DNA of 64,000 nucleotides from Ginglymostoma cirratum (lineage: Eukaryota): NCBI GenBank assembly GCA_024137785.1, contig JAHRHZ010000087.1, positions 17,860,258-17,924,257 of the forward strand, read 5' to 3'. A program made the position numbers and the translations under genes. The notes below the pieces were generated by a model that saw only the letters and a program-made list of their open reading frames with translations, made no database searches and had not been told where the DNA came from. Each line of letters begins with the position of its first letter. Within the stretch, counting starts at the first letter, position 1. Shown here piece by piece: positions 2,262 to 58,787 of the stretch.

Positions 2262-2296
2262 ATTTCTGATGAAGGGTCTAGGCCCGAAACGTCAAG
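2262..2296 (+). ncRNA. Minimal type I hammerhead ribozyme motif in the PLE terminal repeat (family A)
   Basis: CTGATGA (2266-2272)-A-GGGTC-TA-GGCCC-GAAAC-GTC (2291-2293): intact core, stem II, and loopless palindromic stem III (ACGT). Matches the known PLE minimal hammerhead architecture. Confidence 0.85.
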
Positions 2297-3294
2297 CTTT
2301 CCTGCTCCTATGATGCTGCTTGGCCTGCTGTGTTCATCCAGCCCCACACCTTGTTATCTCTTAACCAAAAAAGAGTTGCTTTCTCCATAAAGATTTCATG
2401 ATCTGCCAGCACAGCAATAATCTTTTGATATAAATGTTCAAGCTTCCTTTTCAAACTTCTGTGGAAATTGCAATATGTTCACACTCATTAATCAAAATAT
2501 TAACTGCATTACATATGAGAGGTACAAAGCTATAAATTAGGTCATGTCAACACAATAGAACACTATAAAAAGCATAATTAAATGTGATTTATTTATCTTT
2601 GTAGTGAGTGAAAATCGTTATTGAAAATCATGATTTAAGTATGATCGTCGTAGGTATGATCAATCTTCCTGAAAAAAACTTTTAAACAAATAAAATTCAA
2701 TTAATCTACTTTGAAAAAACACAAAAACGCTGAAGTTGCAACATGCAAACCATTAACATTCAAACAACTAACGTGTTTGTGATTCCCTCGAGTATAATTT
2801 CCTCTCATTTTTCCACATAGTTGTTATCATGGAGAATACACATTCAGTATGAGTGTTGCTACATGATATGAAGATTATAGGAGTTTTTTTATCTGCTACA
2901 ACAACTAAGCAAATAGATTCATCCTTCCTTTGAAACAGTAGATAAATGAATCTAAAATAATTATATTATTTTGCTCTAATCCCAATATTTATAGAACAGC
3001 AATATTTAAAAATGTTTAGTTTCATATTGTTACCTGTAAAGCACAACAAAATTATCCTTCCTAACCCATTCTGATCAACAGTCAATATAACAAATATATG
3101 GGACAATGAAATATTTCTTCTCATTGTCTACTCATATTGTTGAGCTTTGAGTCCATTTCCTAACTTCAACAAACCTTCTACCTGGGGATTAATTTGTCAA
3201 AATATGCAGCATGTGATACATCTTTGTCAAAGTAAGACTTTGCTCTTGCTTTCCTTAAAAGAAACATTCAAAACCAATGACTTTGAAATAAAGA

Positions 3295-3392
3295 GAGATA
3301 ACAAGGTGTCGAGCTGGATGAACACAGCAGGCCAAGCAACATCAGAAGAGCAGGAAAGCTGACGTTTCGGACCTGGATCCGTCTTCAGAAAT
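3295..3392 (-). mobile_element. PLE-terminus mini-insertion (family A) with intact hammerhead core at 3361-3388
   Basis: Minus strand reads CTGAAGA-C-GGATC-CA-GGTCC-GAAAC-GTC-AGCTTTCCTGCTC...CCTTGTTATCTC, homologous to 2266-2360. Confidence 0.85.
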
Positions 3393-3589
3393 CCTTTCAA
3401 ACACTTATTTTTAAAACAGCTCTTTCTAATTTCCTTCCACAGTTTTTAAAAAGACACTGTCTTTACAAAGGTATTTTAGTGCTGTATTACCTGCTGCCTT
3501 AGTCTTTCCCCTTTTCTCACCTGAATATACCAAGTCTTATAACATGTTTGAAATAACAGTAAAACAGTATAGAGGTAGCCACTGGATAT

Positions 3590-3830: not shown

Positions 3831-3837
3831 TGCTTGC

Positions 3838-4400: not shown

Positions 4401-4740
4401 TCATAGAATCCCTACATTGTGGAAACAGACCATTTGACCCAACAAGTCCACACTACCCCTCCAAAGAGCATCCCATCTCAACCCATTCCTGTACCCCTGT
4501 ATTTTCCCATGTCCAACCCACCTAACCTGAACATCCCTGAACATTATGGGCAATTTAGCATGACCAAATTCACCTACCCTGCAGACCTTTGGACTGTGGA
4601 AAGAAACCGGAGCACCCAGAGGAAACCTATACAGACATGGGGAGAATGTGCAAACTCGACACAGCCAGTTGCCTAATGGTGGAATTGAACCTGAGTCCCT
4701 GGTGGTGTGAAGCAGCAGTGCTAACCACTGTACCACCCCC
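4401..4740 (-). mobile_element. HE1-like tRNA-derived V-SINE
   Basis: Minus strand: tRNA-like head GTGGTTAGCACTGCTGCTTCACA, V-domain TTCTCCCCATGTCTG...GGTGCTCCGGTTTC, and CR1-type tail ...GTAGGGATTCTATGA. Confidence 0.88.
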
Positions 4741-6292: not shown

Positions 6293-6631
6293 TCATAGAA
6301 TCCCTACAGTGTGGAAGCAGGCTATTTGACCCATTGAATTCACACCAACCCTCCGAAGAGCATCCCACCCAGAACCAACCTATTGCTTTAATTTAATAAA
6401 CCCTATATTTCCCCTGGCTCATCCATTTAGCCTGCACACTCTTGACAATATGAGCCACTTGGCATGGCCAATCCATGTAATCATTAGACTGTGGGAGGAA
6501 ACTGGAACACCCAGAGGAAACCCATGCAAACATGGGGAGAATGTGTAAACTCTACACAGACAATCGCTTAAGGATGAAATCAAACCCAGGTCCCTGGCAC
6601 TGTGAGGTAGCAGTGCTAACTCTACTGCCCG
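6293..6631 (-). mobile_element. HE1-like V-SINE inserted in the RTE element
   Basis: Same head, V-domain and tail as 4401-4740. RTE coding resumes on both sides. Confidence 0.88.
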
Positions 6632-13089: not shown

Positions 13090-14125
13090 ATTATGATCCC
13101 AACTGATGTTACAACTGGACAAGTCAGATCCAGAATTAAATCTGCTTGATAGATCATATGTTGCTTTTTTTCTAATTTAAAGTGGTAGTCTTTCCCTGAA
13201 CAAAAATACACAGGCTACAGATTTGGTTTTAACAATAAAATCATACTTCATTCCACAAAAGGAATTAGAAAAAGCATATCATGTTCTCTGAATATAATGA
13301 AGTGTGAAGGCCTTCGAAACACATAGCAAAATAAAGTTTCATCTACTCCCCAACAACATCACTTTATAGTTACTCAAAAAAAAATGTTCCCTTTCTGCCC
13401 AATCTGTAGATTTTATTTGACTGTTTTCTCCCTCAGTTCCTGTGAATGGTGCAATCTTTGCCTCGAATTCTCGCACCACTTGAAATCCTAGACTTTCTTG
13501 TCTTTGAATAACATGCAGATCGCTAATCAAAAATACTTGATCTGGAAGTTTTCACAAGCTGAAATCCTTAAGCTAAAGTAATTTATTCCCTTAAATGATC
13601 TGAACAAACTCCTTTTTCTAGGAGAAACTATTATTACATCTGACTTCAGTCAGGTCTCCTTCAAAATGAATTCACAAGCTTTTAACTAAATTAAAAACAA
13701 ACGTACTCATCCCAGCTTCTGCAAAGCTAATGATTTAATTTTTTTCACCAACTGTCATAGAACCCAAAATATTAACAAACTTCCATTAACACTACTGGAG
13801 GCCTTTAGTTGCCTGCTCTCTGAAACATACCGGCTTGAAATCATGTTTCCAAAAAGACTGAAACAAAAACAAAGTTGCTGGAAAAGCTCAGCAGGTCTGG
13901 CAGCATCCGTGAAGGAAAAGACAGAGTTAACGTTTCGGGTCTGGTGACCCTTCCTCAGAACTGTTTTTATTCCTGATTTACAGCAACCGCAGTTTTTTCG
14001 GTTTCCAAAAAGACTGACCAGTTAATTGTGAAACCTCTTCCCCAGCAAAAAAAAGACCAGCACCCATATCTGTCTCTCTGTCTCTGGACAGTCATATTAA
14101 GGAATTCCCATTGAAACATCACAAT
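13090..14125. mobile_element. Probable solo LTR-like repeat hosting a hammerhead mini-insertion
   Basis: Begins TTATGATCCCAACTGATGTTAC... and ends ...AACATCACA. Non-coding, about 1 kb. Recognised by resemblance only. Confidence 0.35.
13862..14000 (-). mobile_element. PLE-terminus mini-insertion (family B) with intact hammerhead (13925-13962) and 17-bp TSD
   Basis: Minus strand AGTT-CTGAGGA-A-GGGTC-ACCA-GACCC-GAAAC-GTT-AACT. Flanked by GTTTCCAAAAAGACTGA at 13845-13861 and 14001-14017. Confidence 0.88.
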
Positions 14126-14394
14126 GACAGTTTCTTATAAGAGGGTTTTCAAGGATGCCACTTGGTGATCCAGACACTGGAATTGCAATTTAGAACCTTG
14201 ATCGCCTGCTCAATGATTATTCTGCTGAACAGGTAGCATTAATTATATTTTGATGGTGTCTCTGCCTAGGGATCATGACCACCAGGCCTGTATGCAGGGT
14301 GGTCAATGAACTGGGAATTTATTTTGTTTGTTTAGTCTCATTTTAGTTATTTTTGGTCTTCCTGTTCTAAAAACAAACAGCATCAAAATTTTAG

Positions 14395-14552
14395 AGATAA
14401 TAAGTACTGCAGATGCTGGAGAATCCGAGGTAACAAGGTGTGGAGCTGGATGAACACAGCAGGCCAAGCAGCATCATAGGAGCAGGAAACGTCAAGCTTT
14501 CCTGCTCCTATGATACTGCTTGGCCTGCTGTTTTCATCCAGCTCCACACCTT
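14395..14552. mobile_element. Fold-back PLE-terminus insertion (family A): 55-bp inverted arms, 16-bp TSD
   Basis: 14435-14489 is the reverse complement of 14498-14552 with 2 mismatches. AGCATCAAAATTTTAG at 14379-14394 and 14553-14568. Confidence 0.9.
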
Positions 14553-14707
14553 AGCATCAAAATTTTAGCCTTAAACAGGCTAATGGTTAGCTTACTGTAC
14601 AACAATTGTTGGAAGTTACTGAGTAGAAATGTGATACAGTTATCAGATAACATACCAATTTAAAGATTAAATATTGATGTGGATAAAAGGTACTTATGAA
14701 ATTGGAT

Positions 14708-15218
14708 TAGAGATAGTAGGAACTGCCAATTGGATTAGAGATAGTAGGAACTGCCGATGCTGGAGAATCTGAGATAACAAGGTGTAGAGCTGGATGAACN
14801 NNNNNNNNNNNNNNNNNNNNNNNNNNNNNNNNNNNNNNNNNNNNNNNNNNNNNNNNNNNNNNNNNNNNNNNNNNNNNNNNNNNNNNNNNNNNNNNNNNNN
14901 NNNNNNNNNNNNNNNNNNNNNNNNNNNNNNNNNNNNNNNNNNNNNNNNNNNNNNNNNNNNNNNNNNNNNNNNNNNNNNNNNNNNNNNNNNNNNNNNNNNN
15001 NNNNNNNNNNNNNNNNNNNNNNNNNNNNNNNNNNNNNNNNNNNNNNNNNNNNNNNNNNNNNNNNNNNNNNNNNNNNNNNNNNNNNNNNNNNNNNNNNNNN
15101 NNNNNNNNNNNNNNNNNNNNNNNNNNNNNNNNNNNNNNNNNNNNNNNNNNNNNNNNNNNNNNNNNNNNNNNNNNNNNNNNNNNNNNNNNNNNNNNNNNNT
15201 CTACACCTTGTTATCTTG
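14708..15218. mobile_element. PLE insertion with inverted termini spanning an assembly gap
   Basis: Left: AGATAGTAGGAACTGCC...AGATAACAAGGTGTAGAGCTGGATGAAC. Right: TCTACACCTTGTTATCT (inverted). TATGAAATTGGAT duplicated at 14695-14707 and 15219-15231. Confidence 0.8.
14800..15199. other. Assembly gap (400 N)
   Basis: Run of N. Confidence 1.
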
Positions 15219-17925: not shown

Positions 17926-18060
17926 AGCCATTAGGTTTTTGGATTGAGCTGAATTGCTGATAGCTATAGATTGATGGTCATTGTCCAGCTCTGAATGCTG
18001 TTAACTTTGGTTTGAGTCACTAGGGTTTGGACACAGACTACTCTTTCGGGTTTTGTCAGG

Positions 18061-18965
18061 TCATGGAGTCATAGAGCCATATGGCATGGAAACAGACCCT
18101 TCGGTCCAACTCATCCATGTCGACCAGTTTTCCAAACTAAACCAGTCCCATGTGCCTGTGTTTGGCCCACATCAGTTTAAATCTTTCCCATCCATGTACC
18201 TGTTCAAATGTCTTTTAAATATTGTAATTGTATTCACCTCTACCACTTCCTCTGGCAGTTCGTTCCAGATACACGTCACCTTTTGTGTGAAAAAGTTGCC
18301 CCTCAGGTCTATTTTAAATCTTTCCTCTCTCACCTTAAATGTATACTGTCTAGTTTTGAACCCAGCTATACTTGGGAAAAGACCTTTGCCATTCACCTTA
18401 TCTGTATCTCTTGTAATTTTATGAGGTCACCCCTCAACCTCGTACATTTCAGGGAAAGAAATCCCAGCCTATTCAGCCTCTCCTTATAAGTCAAACCCTC
18501 CAGTCCTAGCAACATGCCTGTAAATATTTTCTGTACCCTTTCCAATTTAGTAACATCTTTCCTATAGAAGGGCAACTCAACCGTACACAGTATTCCAAAA
18601 GTGGCCTCACCAATGTCCTGTGCAGTTGCAACATGGTGTCCCACCTCCTGTACTCAATGCTCTGACCAATGAAGGCAAGCATGCCAAATGCTTTCTTCAC
18701 CACCCTGTGTACTGTGACACCAGTCTCGAAGGAACTGTGTACCTGAACCCCTAGATCTCTCTGTTTGACAACATTCCCCCAGGGCCCTACCATTAACTGT
18801 GTAAGTCAGGCCCTGGTTTATCTTACCAAAATGCAATACCTTGCATTTATCTAAATTAAACTCTTTCTGCCACTCTTTGACCCATTGGCCCAGCTGATCA
18901 AGATCCCATTGTACTCTGAAATAACCTTCTTCACTGTTCACTATGCAATCAATTTTAGTATTTGG
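18061..18965 (-). mobile_element. CR1 (HER1-like) LINE, 5'-truncated
   Basis: EFNLDKCKVLHFG, QRDLGVQVH, LVRPLLEYCV, RLRGDLI and FFTQKV..IWNELPEEVV, plus short-repeat 3' tail (TCATAGAG). Confidence 0.92.
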
Positions 18966-19235: not shown

Positions 19236-19342
19236 AACTAAAAGCAAAATAGTGTAGATGCTGGAAATTTGAAATAAAAAGAGAAAATGGCAGCATCTGT
19301 GGAACTAGTTAATATTTTGAGTACAAAATAACTTCTTCAGAA
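19236..19342 (-). mobile_element. Decayed family-B PLE-terminus mini-element
   Basis: GTAGATGCTGGAAATTTGAAATAAAAA...GGCAGCATCTGTGGA...GTTAATATTTTGAGT...CTTCTTCAGAAC. Only the CTGAAGA box survives. Confidence 0.6.
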
Positions 19343-20118
19343 CGTATTAAATTGTTGGCTTCATTTCCAAGAAATCACATGGCAAAAATCCCTTTCAATC
19401 CAGAAAAGAAATTATTCAACATTTTTTAGGTTACCCATAGAGTTCTTAAATAAAAAACAATAATAACAGTTGATGTAGAAAAGGGCACCACTGCAATGAA
19501 CATTTAGCTATGCTACCAAAGTTTGGATTAATTAAAGGAAAGTGTATTTTGGTTGTGGCAAGGCAGGAAGACTAAAGGACGGTAAGGGGAAATGAAATTT
19601 GGTTGGTAAGTCCATTGATGAAGTGACATAATTAAGTAGCTCTTGTAAATGGTCTAAGTAGCCAAGAGATACTACCTACATGCCCTTAAAATCTTCTAAT
19701 TGTATTTCCAGTGACAAAGGATCCCTCTTAAAAAACTCGGAAAAGGGTATTCTCAGTAATTTGAACTGGTTATAGTTTGTAAAAATATCGGTTGCAATCA
19801 AAATGGTGTCCAGGTCCTAAATTCGTCATATATGAATTGGTCTCTCACCTGATTAGGTGGGGTTTTTTCTGGTTAAATTGAGGCCATGGAAAAGTTGGCT
19901 ACATGTACCTGAAGTGGGTTTTCTATGTTTTCAGCAAGATTAACAGATCATACAATCATTGTATCTGGAATTTCATTGTTTCATATCCAAACTTGTCAAA
20001 TAGCTTGATTTACCCCCTGTTAGCTGGCAGCCTTGATAACTGGATTGAGGGATGATTTCCCCTAAAATTTCATGTTAAGGTGGCCAAAACCACAAAATGC
20101 CAGTTTACTGTTTTTCAG

Positions 20119-21777: not shown

Positions 21778-21862
21778 TGGAAAATGCTATTGGCACTCAG
21801 TAGGAGCTCAGTGGAGAGAGAAGCAGAATTAATGTTTCAAGTCTAAAGACTTCTTCGGAACC
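21778..21862 (-). mobile_element. Decayed family-B PLE-terminus mini-element
   Basis: GGAGAGAGAAGCAGAATTAATGTTTCAAGTC...GACTTCTTCGGAAC, homologous to 13900-13960. Confidence 0.55.
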
Positions 21863-27765: not shown

Positions 27766-28379
27766 ATTTCAGCTTTTATTTCAAATCTTCAGCATCTGCA
27801 GTTGTTCATTTTATTTTAGTTCCACGGATATTCCTATCTTGTATGTGTGTGTGTGTGCCAGATAAGATGTAAAGTACCTAATTTCAAATCAGCAACAAGA
27901 TTCCTTTAGTTACTGCAGTTGGACTGATCTCCCTGCTTGAATATAGTCACAATCAGAGCCTCCTTGATAGATACATAAATGTCAGAAGAAAGGACTATAA
28001 GGAAATGCAGATTGGATTAAATGAATACGGGTAGGCGAAGGTTATGTAGAACATTAACACTGGATTGGTTAGGTCAAATAATCTTCTTCTGTGCTGTAAA
28101 TTCTTGATAATTCTGTGTAATTACATGAAGTGAGTAACATCTTGCACAGACTACAGACTCATAGAATTCTCAATATAATGATTAAATTGGCAAATAATGC
28201 CAACAATGACTAGATGTGACTAAGGATTGTACCTTGAAGCATGGGGGGAAAAAAAAATGAAATGCAGGAACCATTTGTACATTCATCTTTTATAACCTAG
28301 TTTGTCATACATAAAACCTATAGTTGCAAATAAAGATTTTTATCATTTTCAACAAAGCAATGTGGTCAGGTTTTTGGTG

Positions 28380-28513
28380 TGGGGCTGGATGAACACAGCA
28401 AACCAAGCAGCATCAAAGGAGCAGGAAAGCTTGACGTTTCGGGCCTAGACCCTTCATCCAGCCCCACACCTTGTTATCTCGGATTCTCCAGCATCTGCAG
28501 TACCTTTTATCTC
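28380..28513. mobile_element. Fold-back PLE-terminus insertion (family A), 17-bp TSD
   Basis: TGGTCAGGTTTTTGGTG at 28363-28379 and 28514-28530. Inverted hammerhead segment joined to a forward 3' tail. 18-bp inverted repeat 28376-28393 / 28453-28470. Confidence 0.9.
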
Positions 28514-28870: not shown

Positions 28871-29032
28871 ACTAAAACAAAACAAACAACTGCAGATGGC
28901 GGAAATTTGAAATAAAAACCAAAATCACTAGCTTGCTTCTCAAGAGTCATTGGACTCGAAACATTAATGCTGTTTCCTCTTCACAGATGCTCCAGACTGG
29001 CTGGGTTTCTCCAGTAATTTCTATTTTTATTT
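28871..29032. mobile_element. Decayed family-B mini-element with two oppositely oriented parts
   Basis: CTGCAGATGGCGGAAATTTGAAATAAAAAC (inverted tail) followed by GAGTC-ATTG-GACTC-GAAACATTAA...CACAGATGCT (stem II and GAAAC). Confidence 0.65.
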
Positions 29033-29159
29033 TTTTAAAATATATGAATCTGTCAATTTATGCATTTGCTAAAAAAAGTTTTATCTCAATTTGCAACTGA
29101 TGCTGTGGTAAATATTGTGACAAATTTCAACAGTAATGAATTGTTACAATCCTCATAGA

Positions 29160-29450: not shown

Positions 29451-30134
29451 CAACAAAGCTGCAAACAGAATGCAAATTAATTGACAGGATTTCACTTTAT
29501 AAAACCGGTGCTGTAATAACTGATTACATTCAACATAATTCAAAGTTTAACTGATATGATATTTCAAATAAACAGGTAAATTTAACTTGAAGTAGTTAAT
29601 ACAACAAAACTATGCTTTTCTGATACAAAGAAGGTGCTTTTAAAATCATATCTCCTCACCTGCAGTTATTAGGAACTGGCTTATCTCAACTAATTTTCCT
29701 TGACTTTAGTCAGAGGGTGGTAGACTTTATCATACATAATTTGGGCTTGCATTGTCCAACTAGCCCCACACCCAGAGGATGAAAGCCAGTTACTTGCTTC
29801 CTGACAGACTAAAATAAAGATATGTTTTTCACTAGATTTAGTTTTCCCAGACATTATAAACAGAAAATGTTCCCCATCAAAGGGAATCGGAGTTGGGTTC
29901 ATTGTACATTTGATATAGAAGGTTAGCTGTGACTATTTAAATTTTAACTATAAATTTTATATAATAAAACAGCAAGCAGTTTTGATGGTTGTACAAATGG
30001 TATGAATCTAAAAGCTAAATTATATCCTGGGAAGAAAAGATAACATTCTTATTTCTATGAGAGAATTCAAACTTCAAACCTGACGTAGTACAAACATAAG
30101 ACTTCCACAAAAAGCAAAGACATACATTAAACAA

Positions 30135-30225
30135 TAAGAGTCACTGGATTCAGAACACTGAATCTGCTTTCTCTTCATAGATGCAAACAGCCCTCCTGAG
30201 TTTCTCCAGCAATTTCTGTTTCTGT
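30135..30225 (+). mobile_element. Decayed family-B mini-element
   Basis: AAGAGTCACTGGATTC...CATAGATGC...CTGAGTTTCTCCAGCAATTTCTG. Confidence 0.55.
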
Positions 30226-30497
30226 TAAACATCAAAGTGATATTATCGAGAACCCCAAGAATGTGAGACTCGTTAGGTTCTGAATGAATCTCAGGTGGAG
30301 GTGATCAACACCAACACCTCTCTTCTAATGAACCTAATCGTTTCAGTTATGTTGAAGGATTTGTTACTAATCTTTTTTATAATTAAAAGATGGTGTGGAA
30401 GATGGTCGTTTGATCAATAAAAACCACCCTTAATCATATTAGGTGAGGAGGCCTAAAGTGTCTCTCACTTACACAATCTGTTCCCATTGTAATCAGG

Positions 30498-32205: not shown

Positions 32206-32956
32206 TTCACTATTCCTTAATTTTGGGTAATGTTCTGCAACCAGTTAGATAAAAAGACTAGGGGCTTAGCATTCCTTTCTCAGTTTATGGTTTTATTAGC
32301 TGAATGGCAACGCATCCCAGTGCTATTCATCATCACAAAATTAGTGGCTTTTAGGTGTAAGTAATCTTTGTCAGCAATTTCATTTGATTTAAAGGGACCT
32401 TTTATTTCTGGACATCTTCATTCTTAGAAGAATGCTGCTTGCTGTAGGTTTTACTGAAAAGTAACTTTTCAATTAACTTCTTGTATTGATTCCATAAATT
32501 GTAGCTCTTCTTCCTTCAAACAAACACTTGTACAATTTCCCATACAAATGTGGCACCATATGCAATCTCGCATGCTTTCCAACTTTGCCTCTGATACATA
32601 GGATCTCTCACTTCCTATTCATTGCATTTAGTCCTCAAGTCACTTTCAAGGGGAGGCATATTCCAAGTGACACTGATACCCCAGCCTAATTTCTCCAGCT
32701 AGACTCCAATTAGTCTTGATGGCTTAGAATCCCTGGAAACTCCCTTTACAGACTTCTATCAATGGTCTGGTTGGTGCTAGAAAAATGAAACAGAAACATG
32801 AGCCTTGTCCAATCCATCAACTTTGCTATTCCCATCTTCAGCTCTGTAGATTTTAAGTATATCACATGTACAGCAACCCAGTCCCATCTCCATCCTCAGA
32901 CTTATTCCAGCTTTTCACTCGAATCTGTTTTGAAATGCAGTTTCATTTGATTTCTA

Positions 32957-33039
32957 GATAACAAGCGTGGGGCTGGATGAACACAGCAGGTCAAGCAGCA
33001 TCATAGGAGCAGGAAAACTTGACGTTTCGGGCCGAAACC
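32957..33039 (-). mobile_element. Family-A mini-insertion truncated within hammerhead stem II, 13-bp TSD
   Basis: CATTTGATTTCTA at 32944-32956 and 33040-33052. Ends in the palindrome GTTTCGGGCCGAAAC. Confidence 0.85.
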
Positions 33040-33481
33040 CATTTGATTTCTAATTTGATTCTTTTATTCTTACTTGCAACCTAATAGCAAACTATCCCAA
33101 CAGCAGCATACCCCTTTCCCCGAATAATCTCAGTTTCACTTGATTCTTCAAGAGACCATTGCGAAAGTAAATACAGGTTTTCCCTAAAGAACATAAGTTT
33201 TCACAACATGTGTGCAATCCAGAACGCTTCATATCACTTGATTTTTCTGACATTAAGATTGTAAAATACTGAGGAAATAAGTAGAAAGATATCAGCCCAA
33301 ATTTCATTGATCTTCACTGTGCTGGCAAAAGTAATGAGCACTTAGCAATTACAATCTGAATATAATTTCCACATAATCATTAACAAATAGTCATCATTAA
33401 AAGAACTTGTAATGCTAAGTAGAGTTTATAACATCCTCAGGAGGTTTCAAAGTGCTTCACAATCAGTTGATTATTTAAATT

Positions 33482-34660
33482 GGACGGAGGAGGGGTGGGG
33501 CTGAGGAAAGTAGATGGGGTGGTGATAGGTGAGCGTAGGTAGGGAGTGGTGGGGATTGGTCAGTGGGATGGGTGGGACGGATAGGTGGGAGAGAAGATGG
33601 ACAGGTTGTGTCAGGTCAAGGAGGCAGGGATGAGAGGGAGGGTTGGACATGGGATGAGGCCGGGGGTGGGGATATTTTAGAACTGGTAATTTTCATGTTT
33701 AGGCCATTGGGCTGTAGGCTCCTGAGGCGGAATATGAGGTTCTGATCCTCCAGTTTGCGGGTGATGTCATTGTGACACTTGAGGACGCCCAGGATGGACA
33801 TGTCACCCAGGGAGCGGGAGGGGGAGTTAAAATGGTCTGGAAGATGTTGTCGTTTGTTGCATACAGAGCTCAGATGCTCTACGAAACGGTCTCTGAGTCT
33901 ACACTTGGTCTCACTGATGTAGAGGAGGTCACATCAGGAGCAGTGGATACAGTCGACTAAGTTGGTGGATATACAGGTGAACCCCTTTCTAATGTGAATG
34001 GTTTGCTTTGAGCCTTGAATACAGGTGAGGGGGGAGGGGTAGGCGCAGGTGTAGCACTTCCTGCTGTTGCAGGGAAAGGTGCCGGGTGTGGTCAGGTTAG
34101 TGGGGAGTGTGGAGCGGATGAGGCAGTTACAGAGAGAGCGGTCCTATGAAAGGCAGAAAGGGCTGGGGAGGGAAATATCTCTTTGGTCGTGGGGTTGGAT
34201 TGTAGGTGGCTGAAGTGGTGGAGAATGATACGTTGGATGGGGAGGTTAGTGGGGTGATACGTGAGGTCAAGGGGGATTCTGTCTTTATTATTGTTGGAGG
34301 GAGGGGGTATGTGGGCAGAAATACAGGAAATACAAGAAGTGCGGTTGAGGGCATTTTTGATCACTGGAGGGGAAAGTTACAGTCTTTGAAATTGGAGGAC
34401 ACCTGGGATGTTCGGGAGTGGAATGCCCCATCTTGGGAGCAGACGCGGTGGAGGCAGAGGAGTTGGGACTATAGGAATCGCATTCTTGCCGGAGGGTGGG
34501 TTAGATGAGGTATAGTCCAGGTAGCTGTGGGAGTTGGTGGGCTTGAAATAGATGTCACTTGATGCAGTGACCAGAGATGGAGATGGAGAGATCCAGGAAG
34601 GAGAGCGAGGTATCGGAGATGGTCCACGTGAATTTGAGGTTGGGGTGAAAGGTGTTGGTA
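33482..34660 (-). mobile_element. Older Penelope-like element fragment (RT C-terminus and GIY-YIG)
   Basis: NNNKDRIPLDLTYHPTN, FPSPALSAF and RKLEDQNLIFRLRSLQPNGLN, collinear with 190-1240. Confidence 0.88.
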
Positions 34661-37800: not shown

Positions 37801-37844
37801 ATATGTGACAAGTCAAATCCAGCACAAATCTGTGCTGCAGCTTC

Positions 37845-39119: not shown

Positions 39120-40895
39120 ATGCTACAGTCAGCAAAGTGCAGCAAACCAACAAGATCTGTCATCCCAAAAGATGCGAAGCATTTCTTCACATTTGCAAAT
39201 CTTTTGGCACCAAAAGCCATTGGGCGTGCATCTGTAGGAAATCTGGTTTCAAAAGCCATGCCAGATCCCAGAACAGAACATAGGTGACAGATAAGATGGC
39301 ACAACAGCACAACACTAGCAACTTGGACCATCTTAAAGAATGTGCACCTATGCAAGAATTGATGGAGTGCATAGTCAACTAATAAAGATAAATTTCAGAG
39401 ATAACCAAGCTGGCCATAGTGTTAATCTCAAGCACTATGTTAACTGTTTAAGACAATCGCAAGCTTTTACAATCATTAACATCACATGCCCTGAAAGGGC
39501 GGGGTGTCAAATATTAAAAGCTAAATTGACATGGGAGCCAGTGGCAACATACTATCACTGCACATCCTGAAAGACATGTAATTCAGTAAGTGGTGCTATA
39601 TGGTAATAATGGCACAGGAGGCGGTCTCACAACGTACAATGGCTTACCAATTCTATGCATTGGCACATTGACACTGCAGAGTCAACCAGCAAGTTCATCT
39701 TGGCTTCTTGAAATCTTCTACCTGGCAAATACAAATGTCAATCAGTGAAAGAACTGCCAGTGTGCACACATCTCCGTGTAGTAACAATTCATGAGATTCA
39801 TACCATTCCTTCCGTTGTGGAATGGACTAGGTGTGATACATCAAATCAGTCAACAATTTCAAACAGATGCACCCAAACCTCTTCAACATGAGCAACAACA
39901 GTGGTGCAATATTTCATCTTGAGGATTGTACAACCCCTTTTATTGACCCTTCAAATAAGTGCAGTGTGCACATTCAGATGAAGCTTTGTGCAGAAATCTA
40001 TGAGATGGAACTAAATAGTATCATTTCTAAGGTCAACCACCGCATGGATTGGTGTAGCTCCATCACATGTGTCCTAAGGAAAGATGGCAGCACAAGATTA
40101 TATGCTTAGATCCAATGCACCTCAACCTTTAGCTTAAGAGGTGTCCACCTAGAATGCCAACTCTGCAAGAGTTAAATCGTAAATGTGTTGGAGCCAGGTT
40201 CTCTTCCAAACTGAAACAAAATCAGAAATTACTGGACATTGCTCCAGAACTCTGAAGAAGGGTCACTGGACCCGAAATGTTAACCCTGCTTTCTCTCCAT
40301 AGATGCTGCCAGACCTGCTGAGTTTTTCCAGCAATTTCTGACTTTGTTTCTGACTTACAGTATCCACAATTCTTTGTTTTCTTTTCCAAACTGGATGTGA
40401 AACATGGAGCAACTAGATAGTGGAAGAATCCCAAGAGCTCATAATATTTTGGATACCGTTTGGACGGCTCTATTTCTTAATATTAACATTTGGTTATCAG
40501 TTAACCAAAACTTATTCCAGCAGCACATGGATAGATGTATTGAAAATGCAACTGGCTGGCTTTGCATAGCTGATCATGGTTAAGGATAAGATTTTTTTCA
40601 AATAAGATGTTTGAAGATTTTTTTTATCTTAAGTATAAAGGGGATGTGGTGTTGTCTCATCACCATGTCATAGTATCTGATGTCAACGTATAAATGTCTC
40701 AGACACTATCTTAATTGGTGTTATTTGACATTTGAAGGAAGTATGCTATTGTTTGTAACTGAAAAGCTTAATATTAACCTAGGCACTAAAGTGCCTGAAG
40801 GTGTAACAAGTGTGCATATATGTAGAGCTGTAATAAACATCACTTAAATTGTCTGGTACTACGTTACCTATGTTCTGTTCTGGGAGGTAACATCA
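39120..40895 (+). mobile_element. Ty3/Gypsy LTR retrotransposon relic (gag knuckle, protease, RT, PPT, 3' LTR)
   Basis: CHPKRCEAFLHICKSFGTKSHWACICRK (~39157), IDMGASGNIL (~39525), DWCSSITCVLRKDGS..CLDP, GARFSSKL|DVKHG, PFGR and CIAD. Purine tract AAAGGGGA (40637-40644), then TGTGG...AATAAA...AACATCA (40645-40895). Confidence 0.8.
40214..40383 (+). mobile_element. Family-B hammerhead mini-insertion inside the Gypsy RT, 10-bp TSD
   Basis: TTCCAAACTG at 40204-40213 and 40384-40393. CTGAAGA-A-GGGTC-ACTG-GACCC-GAAAT-GTT at 40252-40281. Short inverted head at 40214-40236. Confidence 0.88.
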
Positions 40896-47070: not shown

Positions 47071-47164
47071 TGAGCAGGTCAACAAGGGGAAGAGAATGGC
47101 AGCAGCTTCAGGGATTCAAGTGGAAGTAGGTGGACAATGGTTGATAGCAGCCTTGGTCTAAATT

Positions 47165-47275
47165 CCAAAGCTGCAGGAGAAATTCAGAAGACTTGGCAGC
47201 ATCTATGGAGAAAAAGCAGAGTTAACGTCTCAAGTCAGTGACCCTTTGCACCTGCAGTTCTTTGTTTAATTTTAG
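47165..47275. mobile_element. Decayed family-B mini-element (inverted part plus forward tail)
   Basis: GGCAGCATCTATGGAGAAAAAGCAGAGTTAACGTCTCAAGTCAGTGACCCTT, then GCACCTGCAGTTCTTTGTTT. Confidence 0.6.
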
Positions 47276-47414
47276 CTCAACTTCCTCCTTTCTGACAGTC
47301 AGAATGATAATCCTGGCTTAAAGGACTGAATGCTAGTATGGGGGCTACTTGAATATACCACTCAGATATTTAACGCTGTGAGGTAACAGTGGCATAGTCT
47401 ATTTCCCTGCCACT

Positions 47415-49330
47415 ACCAGGGGAAACGTTCTCTTGGCATCTACATCTCTCGGAATCAAGGCTTCTCAGAATCTTATGTTTCAATTAGAACCCTTCACGTT
47501 TTTCTAAGCTCCAAATGATTTGGATGTGAATATAGGAGGAATGGTTAGTAGGTTTGTAGATGACACCAAAATTGGTGGTGTAGTGAGCAGTGAAGACGAT
47601 TATCTTAGAGAACGAAGGGAATGTGATCAGATGGGCTGATGGGCCAAAAAGTCGCAGATGGAGTTTAATTTAGATAAATATGAGGTGTTGCATTTCGGTA
47701 AGGCAAATGGTAGGGTCCGGGCCAAACGAAGAAACCTTGGAGGTGCAGGTTCATTGCTCCTTGAGTCACAGATTGACAGGATAGTGAAGAAGGTGTCCGG
47801 CACACTTGCCTTCATTGGTCAGAGCATTGAATGTCGGAGTTGGGATGCCATGTTATGGCTGTACAGGACATCAGTTAGGCCACTTTTGGCATACAGCATT
47901 CAGTTCTGGTCTCCCTACTATAGGAAAGATGTTGTTAAACTTGAAATGGTACAGAAAACATTTACAAGGATGTTGCTGGGATTGGAGGGTTTAAACTATA
48001 GGGAGAGGCTGAATAGGCTGGGACTATTTTCTCTGGAGCGTCAGAGGCTGAGGTGTGGCCTTATAAAGATTTATAAGATCATGAGGGGCATGAATAGGGT
48101 AAATAGCCAATGCCTTTATCCCAGAGTAGGGAAGTCTAAAACTAGACAGCGTAGGTTTCGGATGAGAGGGGAAAGATATAAAAGTGACTTAAGGGGAACT
48201 TTTTCACACAGAGGGTGGTGCATGTATGGAATGAACTGCCAGAATGAGTGGTGAAGGCTGGTTAAGTAACAATATTTTAAAGCCATCTGGATGGGTACAT
48301 GAATATGAAGAGTTTAAAGGGATATGGGCCAAATGCTTGCAAGTGAGACTAGATTAATTTAGGATATCTGTTCAGCATGGATGATTTGGACCAAGGGATT
48401 TGTTTCCGTACAACTCTCTGACTCTAAATAATGATTTCAAATAAGACAATGCTTTCAATCTCAAGAATTGGCCTAGTGAATATTCTTTTAACTGCTTGTA
48501 GTGCAAGTGCATCCCTCTTTAAGTAAGAATAGAATCTATACACTTCCAAGCACGGTCTCACCAATGTACACAGCTGTAGCATGACTGGGCCCACAACTAT
48601 TTATGACCTTCTAACAACTTGGATGAACAGAACAACTGCATTGTAGCCACATTTGGTGATGATGGGTAAGAAAGGAAGATGCAAGGTGAACACAAAAGAG
48701 TCCACAAAGGGACATAGATAGATTCAGTGGGTGCACAAAAATTTGGTTGATGAGCTGTGATGTGGGAAATAGCGAGGTTGTGTAATTTGGTAGAAATAAT
48801 ATAAAAGCAGAATATTGTTTAAATCGAGAGACACTGCACAATGCTGTCAAACGGAGGGATCTGGGTGTCCTTGTTCATTAATAACAAAAGGGGTTAGCAT
48901 ACTGGCACAGTGAGTAATTAGGAAGGCAAGTGGAATGTTACAAGGGGATGAAGTATACAATTTGTGGTGTAATGCTACGAGTTTGCAGAGTATTGATGAG
49001 ATAGCGATCAATATAACACTCAGCTATTCTAGTCACTAGTTAATTTGCTAATTTGGAAATGACCTATTTATCTCAACTCACATTAACCAATCCTGTATCC
49101 ATGCTATTTTACCAGCCCAAACAACATGACTTATCTTGTGTATCAATCTTTTATGATCCATCTTATCAAATGGCTTGTGGAAATCCAAATACACTCCATC
49201 TACTGGTTCCCCTTTAATTCACGTCAGTTATTACATTTTCTAAAAACTCTAATAAATGTATTAAACATAGATTTCTTTTCAAATAAATGACGACCCTGCC
49301 AGATAGAATTGAGATTTTCTGTCGGTGTCA
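47415..49330. mobile_element. Cluster of nested CR1 fragments; best copy 47515-48427 on the + strand
   Basis: FVDDTKIGG, MEFNLDKYEVLHFG, QFWSPYYRKDV and GLFSLERQRLR. Flanking older fragments on both strands. Confidence 0.85.
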
Positions 49331-49428
49331 CAGATATGCAGTGTAACAGATGATAAGTTCTCGGATACAAGCCCTGTTAGAATTTCCACAGATAGGGTTG
49401 TTTGTATATGTGGAGTGGGAGAAGTACA

Positions 49429-49739
49429 GGGTGGCATGGTGGCTCAGTGGTTAGCACTGCTGCCTCACAGTGCCAGGGATCCGGAGTTGATTCCACCCTC
49501 AGGTGACAATCTGTGTGGAGTTTGTTTGTTCTCTCCGTGTCTGTGTGGGTTTCCTCTGGGCACTCTGGTTTCCTTCCACAGTCTAAAGATCTGCAGGTTA
49601 GGTGGATTAGCCATGGGAAATGCAGGATTACAGGGATAGGATAGGGGGATGGGTCTGGTTGGGGTTCTCTTCAGAGGGTCAGTGTAGACTCGATGGGCTG
49701 AATGGTCTGCCTCCACACTGTAGGGATTGTATGATTCTA
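49429..49739 (+). mobile_element. HE1-like V-SINE
   Basis: GGTGGCTCAGTGGTTAGCACTGCTGCCTCACAG...CCACACTGTAGGGATT. Confidence 0.9.
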
Positions 49740-49869: not shown

Positions 49870-50125
49870 TCTTCATTTATGGGGTGTAAGCACTCTGGCA
49901 AGAGCAGCATTTATCTACCATCCCTAACAGCCATGAGAAATTGATGGCTAGTTGTTTTGGAGAACTGCTGCAGTTCATTTGGTGAAAGTACTTTCACAAA
50001 GGGGATAAAATTCCAGTATTTGATTCAGTGATAGTGAAGGCATATTGAGAGTTTTCCAAGTCAGGCTAGTGTGTGACTTGGAGTCGAACTTGTAGGTGGT
50101 GGGATCCCATGCATCACCACTATGC
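49870..50125 (-). mobile_element. LINE 3'-end fragment (same family as 3838-3958)
   Basis: GGCAAGAGCAGCATTTAT...CCCTAA...TTCCAAGTCAGG..GTGTGTGACTTGGAG. Confidence 0.55.
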
Positions 50126-50131
50126 ACTTCT

Positions 50132-50472
50132 GGTTGGCACGGTGGCTCAGTGGTTAGCACTGCTACCTCACAGCACCAGTGACCCAGGTTCAATTCCACC
50201 CTCAGGATACTGTCTGTGTGGAGTTTGCACATGTCTGTGTGGGTGTGCTACAGTTTCCTCCCACAGTCCAAAGGTGTGCAGGTTAGATGGATTGGCCATG
50301 CTAAATTGCCCATAGTGTCCAGGGGTGTGCAGACTAGGTGGATTAGCCACAGGAAATGGGGATTTACAGGAATAAGATAAGGGGGGATGAGTTTGGTGGG
50401 ATACTCTTTGGAGGATTGGTGTGGACTCAATTGGCTGAATGGCCTGCTTCCACACTGTAGGGATTCTATGAT
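50132..50472 (+). mobile_element. HE1-like V-SINE
   Basis: GGCACGGTGGCTCAGTGGTTAGCACTG...CCACACTGTAGGGATTCTATGA. Confidence 0.9.
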
Positions 50473-52360
50473 ATTATCCCCTTCCAGCATACTGAATTCT
50501 TCCCTTTGTATCCCTGCCCAGACTGATTCACCACAGGCCCAAAGGATGGTACCTGGACTGGTTGTACTTGATCTGTGGGACTGACTGTGGTCGAATCTCT
50601 GACTGTCAGGACATGGAACTCTGGATGCTAGTAGACCAAGAACCTGACTGACAGTGGGCAACCCCCTGCATTGGAATCAGTCACACCCTTTGACTGATTG
50701 TGGCATCGTCTCCTGGCTGACTGCAGTCCCCAATGACTCACTAAGAACTGCATCCCTTTAACTTTCACACATGGCTATTTAGCTGAAGGACATTCAGTGC
50801 TTTTGCCATGTAGGCTGCTGGTACATGCTGCAAGTGGGAAATTGACATAGCATGGCGCCATACAGCATCTGTCCATCCCCACGACTGCTCTGTGTTTCCA
50901 GCTGTGGGAAGTTGCCTGCCTCTCCCTTGGTGCTAAGAAGCAATGCAAGCCACTGAGGTTTCAGCCTGCAATTAAGCACAAAGTGAGTGAGAGCTAAGAA
51001 ATCTAGCCGACAGCATTAAGATGCATCCTATGTAAATGCATGAGATATGAGGTGTCCTTTCGTGCAAAACAACCTGGCAGAATTGTGAAAGTTGTGAGTG
51101 ACCCTGACCTCAAAATTAAATCCTGAAGAGCTGAAGAGGTGTTTGAATTGGTGTTTGAATTGGACTAGAAGCAGACATGGGGATGTGGTGAGGCATGTGG
51201 TTTGCTGTTGCCACCTTGCATGGACAAAGAGTGGAGGAAGAGTGTGGTCAGGGAGCACGCATGGGCATTCTGGTGAAGACAGAATTATAGGAAAGCCTGG
51301 ATTAGCAATTGATGAGCTGAAGCAGCCAGATAGCTGTTCTGACTTTCATGTTGGAAATTGCACCATCCATTCTTGGGGAAGGAGAGGAGAAAGACTGGCA
51401 TAGAAACGGGATAGAGTTGGGGTTTAATGAGATGGAAATGAATGGAAATTATACAGTCAGTGCTCTGTAGCAAGGTTTTGAAGTTGCCTTTCAAACCTTA
51501 GAGGGAAAATCAGGAACTTATTCTCAAAGTCAAGACTCCACTTCTTTTTCGCTTCCATTTCTTTCTCAAGTTTCTCACCATTGTTTATGCCACACCAGGA
51601 AGGGGAAAGCTCCATCCCATGCCCCTGTAATGGCAATCATATGATTCTCATGTCTTTCTATTTATGTTGGCAAAGCATCCATCTTGTTTGAAATGTTCTG
51701 TTCAGATAAAGCACCTTTTTTTATTTTTGTCTTTTTAACCCATGTTCCCTAGTCTGATCTTATTTGCTGGTAAACTCTTATGTTTGTATGTTATGTTTCC
51801 CTGATGCACTCTGGTTAGCATTATTTGCTGCACTGTGCTACTCACTTGTCCTTTCCCTTTAGTTTTCTAAATCTGGCCTCACATGAACAGTTTACTTTCC
51901 ATTTTAGTTTGAAGCCCCCTCTGCAGCCATAGTTATAAGGATCACCCCTACACAAGTCCCAGAGGAGAATACAATCAATTTAACATAAACAATAACATAC
52001 CACAGAATATTACATGAATTAAGAGTTGAACATTAGAAATGAGAATGTAATTTTAACAAATAGATACAAATTTAAATTTTCAGCAACCGAATTTTGGTGA
52101 TTGAAAACCAAATTTGAGCCCAATATTTAGATACTGAGACTTTGATCTTCTACATACTTTGAATAGACATCTTAATTATGAAACATTCCCTGACTTACAA
52201 ACATCCGACTCATCAAAACTTGTATTTATGAATGTGATCCTGTACAGAAGTATGATTTTAATAATCCAAGATACAAATGTTTTCTGTACTTGTGCAATTA
52301 TTTTATATTGTCCTGCATTGGATTCAAGAACACAACCTGTTTGCATCTCGGGGACTGCTT

Positions 52361-52647
52361 GATAGAATCCCTACAGTGTGGAAACAGGCCCTTTGGCCCA
52401 ACAAGTCCACACTGAACCTCAGAGCATCCCACCCAGACCCACCCCCTATAACCCACCTAATCTACACCTCTCTGAACACTATGGGCAATCCACCTAACCT
52501 GCACATCTTTGGACTGTGGGAGGAAACCCACATAGACATGGGGAGAATGTGCAAACTCCACACAGACAGTCACCCAAGGCTGGAATTGAACCCGGGTCCC
52601 CGGTGCTGTGAGGGAGCAGTGCTAACCACTGAGCCACCATGCTGCCC
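52361..52647 (-). mobile_element. HE1-like V-SINE
   Basis: ATAGAATCCCTACAGTGTGGAAACAGG...GCTAACCACTGAGCCACCATGCTGCCC. Confidence 0.9.
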
Positions 52648-53038
52648 TTCTATAAGACATACTTCTCATATGATCAACAATGATCACTATTGAATGATAG
52701 GCTTAGGTCAGTGTTTATAAACTGTTTCGAACTCTCCAACCAAGAAAGGTCGGCATCAGTCTGCTCTATTATCGTTGGCAACCAACATCGTACACATTTG
52801 ACTGTACCTTCGAACAATCCATTCCACAGTAAGTAAACATCATCCTGCTGTTAAATTATCAAGGATCAGATGGACATCGTGTACATAACAACAATGCCTA
52901 AACCAAAGCCATCGCCCCCTCCCATCCTCACTTCTTATTGATAGGAAAACTAAAGGTAAATTTTAAAAAAAGCTGTCAGTGGGTGAGAAAACAATTTCTG
53001 TAGTACTGCTAGCCTGGGATAGGCTGTGCCTGAGGCAG

Positions 53039-53628
53039 AGATAGTAGGAACTGCAGATGCTGGAGAATCTGAGATAACAAGGTGTAGAGCTGGATGAACA
53101 CAGCAGGCCAAGCAGCATCAGAGGAGCAGGAAAGCTGACATTTTGGGCCTCGACCCTTCTTCAGAAATGGGGGAGGGGAAGGGGGTTCTGAAATAAATAG
53201 AGAGAGAGGGGGAGGTGGATAGAAGATGGATAGAGGAGAAGATAGGTGGCGAGGAGACAGACAGGTCAAAGAGGCAGGAATGGAGCCAGTAAAGGTGAGT
53301 GTAGGTGGGGAGTTAGGGAGGGGATAGGTCAGCCCAGGGAGGACAGACAGGTCAAGGGGGCGGGATGAAACTAGTAGGTAGGAGGTGGGGGTGTGGCTTG
53401 AGGTGGGAGGAGGGGATAGGTAGGAGGAAGGACAGGTTAGGGAGGCGGGGAGAAGCTGGGCTGGTTTTGGGATGCGGTAGGGGTGGGGAGATTTTGAAGC
53501 TTGTGAAGTCCACATTGATATCATTGGGCTGCAGGGTTCCCAAGCAGAATATGAGGTGCTGTTCCTACCTTCGGGTGGCATCGTTGCGGCACTGCAGGAG
53601 GCCCAGGATGGACATGTCGTCTGAGGAA
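53039..53628 (-). mobile_element. 5'-truncated Penelope-like element (GIY-YIG C-terminus and complete 3' terminus), 14-bp TSD
   Basis: LGTLQPNDINVDFTSFKIS as in 188-559. TGTGCCTGAGGCAG at 53025-53038 and 53629-53642. Hammerhead decayed (GAAAC to AAAAT) at about 53137-53164. Confidence 0.92.
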
Positions 53629-53764
53629 TGTGCCTGAGGCAGTTAGCTACACAGACCACACACTGCACGTTATTGTTCCAGGGAATGAATGTAAGCCTGA
53701 CCAGTGTCACTAGAACCTCTGCTTTGAAAACAAAAAAACTCATAAAAATATGACTCATGTTCTG

Positions 53765-53868
53765 TGTTTTGAAGAAGAATCATGCTAGACTCGAAACATT
53801 AATTTTATTTCACTCTACAGGTGCTGTTAAACCTACTGAGTTTCTCCAGAATTCTCCATGTTTTATTA
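53765..53868 (+). mobile_element. Decayed family-B mini-element
   Basis: TTGAAGAAGAATC...GACTCGAAACATTAA...CTACAGGTGCTG...CTGAGTTTCTCCAG. Confidence 0.55.
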
Positions 53869-56689: not shown

Positions 56690-58280
56690 CATGACTGTAC
56701 TAACAGTAATAGAGAAATGGTGTTGGGGAAATTGGTGGGATTAAAGCCTGATAAATCCCCAAATCCTGATAATGTACATCCCAGAGCACCTAAGGACATG
56801 GTCCTAGAAGTAGTGGATGAGTTGATGGTCATCTTTCAAGATTCTGTAGAATTCTGAAACAGCTTTGGAGGGTAATTAATGTAATCCCTTTATTTAAAAA
56901 AGGAAGTAGAGAGAAAACAGGGAATTACAGGCCTGCCAGCAGTAGTGGGAAAATGATAGAGTCCATTATAAAAGATTTAATAACAGGGCACTTGGAAAAT
57001 GATGACCGGATTGAACAGAGTCATCATGGATTTATTTCAAGGAAATCATGCTTGAAAACTACTGGAATTTTTAAAGATGTAATTGGTAGAGTTGATAAAG
57101 AGGAGCTAGTGGATGTGGTTTACTTGGACATTCAGAAGGCTTTTGATAAGATTCTATGTAGAGATTAGGATGTAAAATTAAAGCAAATGAATGGGGGATA
57201 GTGTACTGACATGGATAGAGAACTGTTTGACAGACAGGAAACGCAGACTAGGAATAAATGGGTCTTTTTTTCGAGTGGAAACTGTGAATAGTGGGGTACT
57301 GCAGGGATCTATGCTTGAACCTCAAACATTCACAATATATGTATTAATGATTTAGATGAGGAAACTACATGTCATATCTCCACGTTTGCAGCTGACACAA
57401 AGCTGGGTGGGGAGATATGATCTGAGGAGGATGCAGTGAAGCTTCAGTGTGATTTAGACAAATTATGTGGGATAATATATGGCAGATGAGGTATAGTATG
57501 GATATATGTGAAGTTATCCTCTTTGCGAGCAAAAGTAGGCAGGCAGATCTGTATTATAAAGCTTAGGAAAGAGGGAGGTGCATTGAGATGTTGGTGTCCT
57601 TACACACCAGTCACTGAGAGTAAGCAGCAGGCAGCAAAGAAGACAAAGAGTATGCTAGCCCTCACTGTGAGAGGATTCAAATAGAGGATCAGGGATGTCT
57701 TGCTGCAACTGTATAGGGCATTGGTAAGACTGCGCCTGGAGCATTATGTGTAATTTTGGTTTCCTTATCCGAGGAAGTAAGTTCTGGCTGTTCAGAGAGT
57801 GCAGCAGAGGTTTACCAGACTGATTCCTGGGATGGTGGGAATGACACACAGGGAGAGACTAGTTAGGTGTATATTCACTAGAGTTTGGAAGAATGAGGGG
57901 TGATCTCGTAGAAATTCTAACAGGATTAAACAAGGTAAATATAAGAGGCAGGCTCTCAATGACTGCGGAGTCGAAACCAGGGGTCATAGTCCAAGAATAT
58001 AGTGTATACCATTTATGACAGAGATGATCAGAAATTTCTTCGTCCAAAAAGTGGTGAGTCTGTGGAATTTGTTACTACAGAATGTGGTTGAGGTCAAAAT
58101 ATTGACTGTTTTCACGAACAACCTGAATACATTTCTTTGGGTTAAATGAATCAAAGGATATGGGGAGAACGCAGAACATGGTACAGTACTGCGTTGGATG
58201 ATTAGCCATGATCATATCGAATGGCACAGCAGGATTGAAGGACTGATTGGCCTAATGCTGCTCCTATATTCTATCTTCCA
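56690..58280 (+). mobile_element. Decayed CR1 LINE (RT to 3' tail)
   Basis: DKSP.PD..HPR, FKKGSREK.GNYRP, QSHHGF, VDVVYLDIQKAFDK, SGVLQGS and FAADTKLGG. Confidence 0.9.
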
Positions 58281-58684
58281 TCAGTATAATGGGATATACT
58301 CTAACTTAAATTACCGTAGCTTTAACTTCCTCACAAATGGAGGAGATATAAAATGTACATTTAAAATATTCCCTACAGCTGTTCAAACATGTCTTTTTAA
58401 ATCAACATTTATTTTTATCAACGTTTTATTTCTATGTTTGGATTACATTGTGAATTATTAATGAGAGGTTTCTGCACCAAAATTTCCTCAATGTTCTGAA
58501 CTATAATTAGAACTTATCAAAGATACAAAATATTTAATGTGATTATTACTAATGTTATAATTTTTGGAAATATAGTTAAAATAACTTGAATCATGCAATC
58601 AATGGTCATGCCTTTTCTGGATTGTGGGCCTATTAAAATGAGTAGATTTTTTAAAAACTGAGTGGTTGAGTTAACAAAAATCAT

Positions 58685-58787
58685 GTTCTGAAGAAGGGTC
58701 ACTGGACTTCAAATGTTAACTCTGTTTTATATCCACAGATGCTGCCAGACCTGCTGAGTTTCTTCAGCAATTTCAGATTTTGTTTCA
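58685..58787 (+). mobile_element. Family-B mini-element with partly decayed hammerhead
   Basis: GTT-CTGAAGA-A-GGGTCACTGGACTT-CAAAT-GTT-AAC...CAGATGCTGCCAGACCTGCTGAG. Confidence 0.75.

Follow-up and report, generated by a model that had tools for sequence, protein, structure and literature searches.

Endonuclease-positive Penelope-like elements (PLEs) leave insertions of a recognisable form. In the excerpts of PMC8557442, PMC3846280 and PMC2377424 drawn on here (all sources below are likewise cited from excerpts), these comprise a pseudo-long terminal repeat (pLTR) terminus, an optional tail of 30-40 nt, target-site duplications (TSDs), microhomology joints and inverted arms; where pLTRs are inverted, PMC3846280 and PMC8557442 describe the tail as present on one side. 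According to the literature on PLEs, the element protein nicks both target strands, and in Anolis Poseidon PAc it extends both of them, with uncleaved RNA as the main template and a tail tied to two internal reverse transcriptase (RT) start sites (PMC11167929). The minimal hammerhead ribozymes of metazoan PLEs lack helix III, have palindromic positions 15.2/16.2 and a bulged base before stem II, and occur genome-wide, mostly as single motifs "probably related to truncated PLEs", a few of them lying near each other in opposite orientation (PMC4209133); their in vivo role is described as an open question (PMC7761336). Here we analyse a 64,000-nucleotide stretch of the Ginglymostoma cirratum genome (the window; assembly GCA_024137785.1, contig JAHRHZ010000087.1, positions 17,860,258 to 17,924,257, forward strand), which is densely populated by two families, A and B, of short PLE termini headed by such a hammerhead. 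About half of their 5' ends fall immediately before the motif and none at its cut site, and on balance we favour the explanation that the RT, after starting internally, copied uncleaved element RNA up to its 5' end and ran off, so that the resulting copies are dead.

The shark insertions share the pLTR terminus, tail, TSDs, microhomology joints and inverted arms with the described endonuclease-positive PLEs, and the family A parent, like those elements, combines RT with a C-terminal GIY-YIG endonuclease. They differ in that the copies are reduced to 85-165 nt, have 5' ends sharply concentrated where helix I begins and number about one per 4 kb in the window. The likeness to Poseidon PAc includes two internal RT starts, a hammerhead that precedes the first of them by about 100 nt and, as proposed below, extension of both strands on an uncleaved RNA template; unlike Poseidon PAc, the shark clade has a cysteine linker, its start sites are U-rich where that of Poseidon is an AC-rich loop, and the reading frame beginning with the ATG of CUGAUGA is just 14 codons long in the copy at 2262, this ATG being absent in family B. 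The excerpts of PMC11167929 contain no analysis of where short genomic copies end on their 5' side. The motif agrees with the minimal hammerheads of PMC4209133 in all three traits given above, although helix I is only 3-4 bp here; the excerpts of that paper mention no sharks and map no boundaries. The inversion pattern and the dispersed minimal hammerheads are PLE features already published. The feature is real and is mostly explained by known PLE biology; the residue consists of the 5' hot spot and a base-exact promoter prediction. No report of these shark families or of 5' clustering at helix I was found in a literature search that did not extend to Dfam or Repbase, and the excerpts of PMC6155905 and PMC12602865 contain nothing on sharks or termini.

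A preliminary description of the window had named 14 copies, and the module is present at all 14 coordinates. All are found by nhmmer, for which most copies other than 21778 (copies are named by an approximate start coordinate) served as seeds, so that their scores are partly by construction. With modules taken from other copies in the window as blastn queries, all five family A copies are matched (3295, 14395, 14708, 28376 and 32957; E 4e-7 to 8e-35), as are six of the eight non-query family B copies (strong matches at 13862, 28942, 30133, 47172, 53770 and 58687; E 1e-6 to 4e-32). The family B copy at 19236 gives a weak match (E 0.006), and that at 21778 gives none with blastn and E 8e-11 with nhmmer, though not a seed. 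The reversed window, used as a control, yields no family A match and two family B matches (E 0.24 and 0.6). Family A modules also lie inside two long copies (2262-2360 and 53037-53630), bringing the count to 16 in 64 kb. Pairwise identity is 85-97% among six A pieces and 49-85% among eight B pieces, so B is the older family. The A and B modules are 71-74% alike by blastn, so B too is a PLE terminus. TSDs of 13-17 nt flank six of the 14 named copies and one of 7 nt flanks 30135; only 0.7% of 296 random positions score 12 or more. The copies are insertions and not remnants of deletions. Weak profile matches at 42205-42267 (minus strand), 29743-29772 (plus) and 15669-15716 (plus), with E 0.06-0.5, are perhaps very old module copies.

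Although the preliminary description was right that the copies consist of PLE end modules, it took them for single termini, and seven of the 14 are two-armed inverted insertions. The one-armed family A copies are 3295..3392 (minus strand), which runs from -4 to the short 3' end with an intact core and a doubtful TSD, and 32956..33040 (minus), from +9 to the short end with a TSD of 13 nt; in this numbering the C of CUGA is +1 and the preceding base -1. One-armed family B copies are found at 19236..19343 (minus; -3 to the long tail, decayed, with an internal deletion), 21778..21861 (minus) and 53765..53853 (plus), both decayed and starting at -3, 30133..30226 (plus; about +7 to the short end, TSD of 7 nt) and 58685..58786 (plus; -3 to the short end).

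The remaining copies have arms on both strands. In family B, 13860..14000 (17-nt TSD at 13845 and 14001) joins a minus-strand arm from -3 to the short end (13860-13961, intact core) to a plus-strand arm of tail only; 28871..29034 joins a minus-strand tail arm to a plus-strand arm from +7 to the short end; 40214..40378 joins a 25-nt minus-strand arm from the short end to a plus-strand arm from about -1 to the long tail, with a 15-nt TSD carrying one mismatch; and 47165..47280 joins a minus-strand arm from +7 to near the short end to a plus-strand arm of tail only. In family A, 14393..14552 is a fold-back of a long-tail arm (minus) and a near-short arm (plus) with a 4-nt microhomology joint and a 16-nt TSD, and 28376..28513 is an inverted pair with a 17-nt TSD, its minus arm running from +3 to 10 nt before the short end and its plus arm to the long tail. 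The joints of these two copies show microhomology, GAAA at ~14486 and TTCATC at 28453-28458. The third, 14708..15216, is an inverted family A insertion with a 28-nt restart duplication of tail and target, a 400-N gap and a 13-nt TSD. The duplication is an exact tandem at 14700-14755, made of the tail start and part of the target, and resembles an aborted start followed by re-priming at the same nick. The gap (14800-15199) possibly reflects assembly failure on the hairpin; because it hides the length and 5' ends of the copy, 14708 was dropped from the 5'-end scoring. Near the family B copy at 28871, the segments 27745-27894 and 28790-28945 form an inverted local duplication of ~150 nt, about 1 kb apart, which takes in the family B tail, its junction and unique flank and is not a separate insertion.

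Two fixed 3' ends, a short and a long one, lie 34 nt apart in family A, and the tail is of similar size in family B. Contigs of related genomes were compared on the region 53020-53640, which holds a 594-nt 5'-truncated family A copy (53037..53630, minus strand; GIY-YIG end, pLTR and hammerhead, 14-nt TSD) with a TATA-like box at 53193-53199, hammerhead position C3 at 53164, the short end at 53071 and the long tail end at 53037. Four of 24 related contig sets were used, each sharing at most 0.28 of the window's words, with 122,735 (X4), 309,228 (X14), 17,635 (X1) and 1,122 (X20) contig records on this region. In three of the four, loose contig ends with unrelated flanks occur at 53036, 53037 and 53071, with counts of 835, 540 and 654 in X4, 2893, 1686 and 1922 in X14, and 156, 111 and 131 in X1. 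In each of the seven two-armed copies, one arm carries the long tail and the other ends at the short end or within ~10 nt of it; the long arms of 13862, 28871 and 47165 hold hardly anything beyond the tail. The commonest joints among those listed in the related-genome contigs likewise join a long end to a short end on opposite strands. The two 3' ends 34 nt apart match the two internal RT starts of PMC11167929, identifying the extra segment as a PLE tail.

The hammerhead comprises CUGANGA, stem II of 4-5 bp, GAAA, palindromic 15.2/16.2, UH and a helix I of 3-4 bp, helix III being reduced to a palindrome (AACGUU/AACGUC). The predicted cut falls after +28 in family A and after +30 in family B. 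The family A motif at 2263..2296 (plus strand) has an intact core and a predicted cut after 2293; the core is also intact in 3295, in 13862 and, with a U-G wobble at 15.2/16.2, in 40214, that is, in three of the 13 scoreable short copies. Changes in stem II that keep pairing occur in both families, including one double change from G-C to A-U in copy 3295. A covariation analysis of 12 sequences and eight pairs gave counts above slid controls and not above shuffles (34-433 of 500 shuffles reach the observed value), and none of the five modules that were folded is more stable than its shuffles (z +1.6 to -1.2). The core decays like the rest of the module, with 1/47 vs 26/467 changes in family A (Fisher p 0.50) and 8/75 vs 123/666 in family B (p 0.11). 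The motif was inherited from active parents, and no upkeep is detected in individual copies. A window scan with Rfam gave no hammerhead match up to E 1, and its five microRNA-like matches, all on the 14395 fold-back, fall below the gathering score and are ascribed to chance. A 21-nt shared motif occurs at no locus in viral contigs, at 31 loci in metagenomes and at 19 in prokaryote genomes; none of these 50 loci holds the module, with one hit of 32-35 positions per profile (E 1e-3 and 3e-4), and they were therefore ascribed to chance. Loose ends in X20 at 53131-53148 come from a more distant organism and appear to mark further variants of the PLE terminus, which differ in stem II and upstream sequence and have the same hammerhead core.

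The 5' ends of the hammerhead-bearing arms were read by eye and their distribution tested post hoc. They fall at -4 (3295), at -3 (13862, 19236, 21778, 53765 and 58685), at about -1 (40214), at +3 (28376, where the end is the inversion joint), at +7 to +9 (28871, 30135, 47165 and 32957) and at +21 (right arm of 14395, the left arm of which ends at +33 to +36). Seven of 13 thus lie at -4 to -1, one at +3, four at +7 to +9 and one at +21, and none lies within 3 nt of the cut site. The preliminary statement that the 5' boundary falls at or inside the hammerhead holds for all 13 scoreable copies; the non-random placing of these ends, the origin from PLE termini and the minimal type I motif without helix III are likewise upheld. 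The proposal of units delimited by the ribozyme through cleavage is not supported, as ribozyme sequence on the 5' side of the cut site is retained in the copies. The start lies at -3 to -1 in six of nine family B copies, none of which goes further upstream, and at -4 in one of four scoreable family A copies. The 20-nt upstream flanks of the six B copies are unrelated (15-50% identity). Under smooth geometric truncation, the probability that seven of 13 ends fall within any 4 nt is 0.047, 0.002 or 5e-5 for a mean of 15, 30 or 60, respectively. In X14, 1,268 contigs end at 53167 (-3), with a flank agreement of 0.35, compared with 6,501 at the three 3' end positions listed. A joint from 53167 to 53036 is among the best 15 of 538 in both X4 (20 contigs) and X14 (21 contigs), and the gene model P0124 contains a head-to-head pair whose antisense arm ends at -3, a weak reading taken from codons. 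At position 3393, an extra base stands between the -4 end of copy 3295 and its TSD; it would be a 5' G in the sense strand, as copying of a cap would give, though it is a single case and the TSD of this copy is doubtful.

Upstream of the module, family A is represented by long copies. Its decayed parent body occupies 1..1917 (minus strand), with in-frame stops and a pLTR that runs off the window, and comprises RT (~794-1917; RVT_1 match, E 4e-7), a CX4CX2C linker (CNRRKCYTC, 620-646) and, at its C terminus, a GIY-YIG domain (188-577). The GIY-YIG match of this decayed copy (E 0.007) is below the Pfam cut-off, and that of its relative P0017 is above it. A zinc-finger-like CX2-5CxxC linker between RT and endonuclease is a trait of the Neptune and Nematis PLEs (PMC8557442), and by this linker, not by a tree, the parent is classified as an endonuclease-positive PLE of Neptune/Nematis type. 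Its best long relatives are 57% identical. The adjoining inverted arm (1918..2360, plus strand; 94% identity) is a 5'-truncated pLTR of the same parent that reaches the short 3' end and ends in a family A module. Three related-genome contig sets cover all 30 of the 30 bins upstream of this module. The N-termini of 120 long relatives showed no match to the module translations (best E 0.17), and the start of the open reading frame was not placed.

Both long family A copies have TATTTAT at -35 and an initiator (Inr)-like A at -4, 31 nt apart; the joint background of such a pair is 0.0004 per position. In the arm at 1918..2360, these elements lie at 2231..2237 and within CCCATT at 2259..2264 (both plus strand), and the box is the only 8-9/9 A+T patch in the 348 nt upstream, as it is in the 466 nt upstream of the second copy. 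From this spacing we infer a transcription start at about -4 in family A, the predicted bases being 2262 and 53168. There is precedent for a promoter in this part of the element: the pLTR holds the promoter in Drosophila virilis Penelope (PMC2377424), and the pLTR of Adineta Pen2a has a TATA and Inr-like pair (PMC3846280). By analogy with D. virilis, a splice acceptor at -4/-3 was considered for family A and ruled out, there being no AG at that place and no shared upstream exon; an intron beginning with GT in family B was also ruled out, A having TTT at that place.

In the explanation we favour, transcription would begin at about -4 under the TATA-like box at -35. Within the module that lies 5' on the element's uncleaved RNA, the RT would initiate internally and run off just before the hammerhead, giving a product of ~100 or 132 nt. 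If priming used the long site at one of the two target nicks and the short site at the other, inverted pairs of one long and one short arm would result, often joined through microhomology, and re-initiation at the tail after run-off would yield the joint from -3 to the tail. Copies made in this way would come without the TATA box and be inactive from the outset. Family B would arise likewise from a parent not seen in the window. A linear cleaved template would end at +29 (A) or +31 (B), and no such end is seen among these copies.

Several observations weigh against this explanation. The TATA/Inr test was post hoc, the box is non-consensus (no strict TATAWAWR), both copies belong to one family, and on the opposite strand this AT patch can be read as AATAAA. 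The evidence on the start comes from contigs. In D. virilis, the Penelope promoter is internal and TATA-less (PMC2377424), and transcription starts ~120 nt before helix I, the interval consisting of 46 nt and a 75-nt intron that ends there (PMC2377424, PMC4209133). The gene model P0123 extends to about -12. Among the loose ends listed (24 of 2,320), that at -3 appears for X14 only, being absent from the six each of X4, X1 and X20. Summed contig depth shows no drop across -3 (4.9M to 5.8M in X4, 0.49M to 0.93M in X1), and the main fall lies closer to the cut site (in X4, from 22M through 10M to 5M). There, most contigs disagree with the reference copy at 53140, 53144 and 53151 and by an indel, and depth does not measure copy number, so that a cleaved class may exist genome-wide. 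Finally, earlier stops are required for the six of 13 ends that fall within the motif (+3 to +21).

A less probable alternative is that the -3 copies, chiefly those of family B, descend from a short ribozyme-headed master that resembles a short interspersed element (SINE) and is partnered with a PLE; its transcripts would come from an internal promoter or from read-through and be mobilised in trans. The B starts, with no extension upstream, fit this origin, although run-off predicts a shared 5' end as well. So does the lack of a B parent: none was found in the window, protein searches for such a parent and for termini with upstream sequence gave two gene models each and no parent, and the two hits among four candidates in the family B search both start at the module, with unrelated sequence upstream. 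Penelope promoters can be internal (PMC2377424), and a pLTR alone suffices for mobilisation in trans (PMC3846280). However, family A shares the -3/-4 edge and has long parents, with three long pieces in the window; a read-through transcript would give no fixed 5' end; no transfer RNA (tRNA) gene was called in the window; and the likeness of the A and B modules makes B a PLE terminus too. The earlier claim that family B has no coding partner in the window is not refuted. A second decayed PLE (33490..34660, minus strand) is 74% identical to the A parent, about equal to the likeness of the A and B modules, and is a candidate partner; its hammerhead terminus is lost, so it cannot be linked to family B. 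We regard it as rather unlikely that family B is a true non-autonomous retroelement of 100-135 nt that begins at helix I with a hammerhead, has its own internal promoter and RT start sites and spread without a living parent of its own by using another PLE's protein, as a SINE of PLEs. The preliminary description is supported as regards insertion by PLE-type machinery, to which the TSDs, tail and inverted arms point; a SINE-like master for family B has the same low probability.

Equally tentative is the proposal that the RNA extends upstream and that stalling or template switching by the RT takes place at the hammerhead's edge, because the fold is protein-bound or because of a C-run upstream, with microhomology joining to AT-rich targets sharpening the hot spots. 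The microhomology at inversion joints, the secondary ends at +7 to +9 and +21, at the edges of stem II, and the C-rich tract from -5 in family A all suit such stalling. The RT, however, would meet the 3' side of the fold first, making a stall at the far edge of helix I unlikely, and none of the 13 ends is near the cut; this places the boundary elsewhere than the stalling at the fold suggested at the outset would predict. The stronger AT patch at -35 has no hot spot among the loose ends listed, and the modules fold no better than shuffles.

Highly improbable is a retrozyme route, in which hammerhead dimers cleave the RNA and monomers or circles are reverse transcribed into ribozyme-delimited units: although the core motif is conserved in both families with pairing-preserving changes in stem II, and a rare joint on one strand, leading from -3 back to where the tail ends, recurs (~20 contigs in each of two contig sets), that joint does not run from cut site to cut site, no tandem units occur in the window, no unit ends at the cleavage site, few cores are intact and pair counts do not exceed shuffles. 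Animal non-LTR retrozymes (PMC7229834, PMC7761336, bioRxiv 10.64898/2026.07.22.740005) are also small, non-coding, hammerhead-bearing and related to PLEs, and the last of these sources derives tandem retrozymes from PLE pLTRs, with one chondrichthyan sampled. They differ in being tandem repeats processed from cut site to cut site into circular RNA, whereas the shark copies are dispersed singles or inverted pairs with ends that ignore the cut site. The retrozyme analogy drawn in the preliminary description is not borne out, there being no tandem array in the window and the cores decaying like the rest of the module.

Other repeats in the window comprise a short family (4401-4737, 6293-6620, 37461-37807, 49428-49735, 50125-50475 and 52360-52648) and decayed fragments resembling long interspersed elements (LINEs), with ~75% mutual identity (18056-18959, 22047-22659, 30493-31216, 37989-38849 and 47565-48790). 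We take the former, for which no tRNA gene was called, to resemble a shark tRNA-derived SINE paired with a CR1-type LINE end, and the latter are presumably CR1/L2-like.

If the run-off explanation is wrong, the short copies are ordinary PLE debris. If it is true, they would form a natural record of where the PLE RT starts and stops, comparable to a strong-stop product, and the origin of partial tandems would be visible in the joints from -3 to the tail. With a transcription start at the -3/-4 edge, the ribozyme would sit at the capped tip of the element RNA and would be uncut when that RNA is copied.

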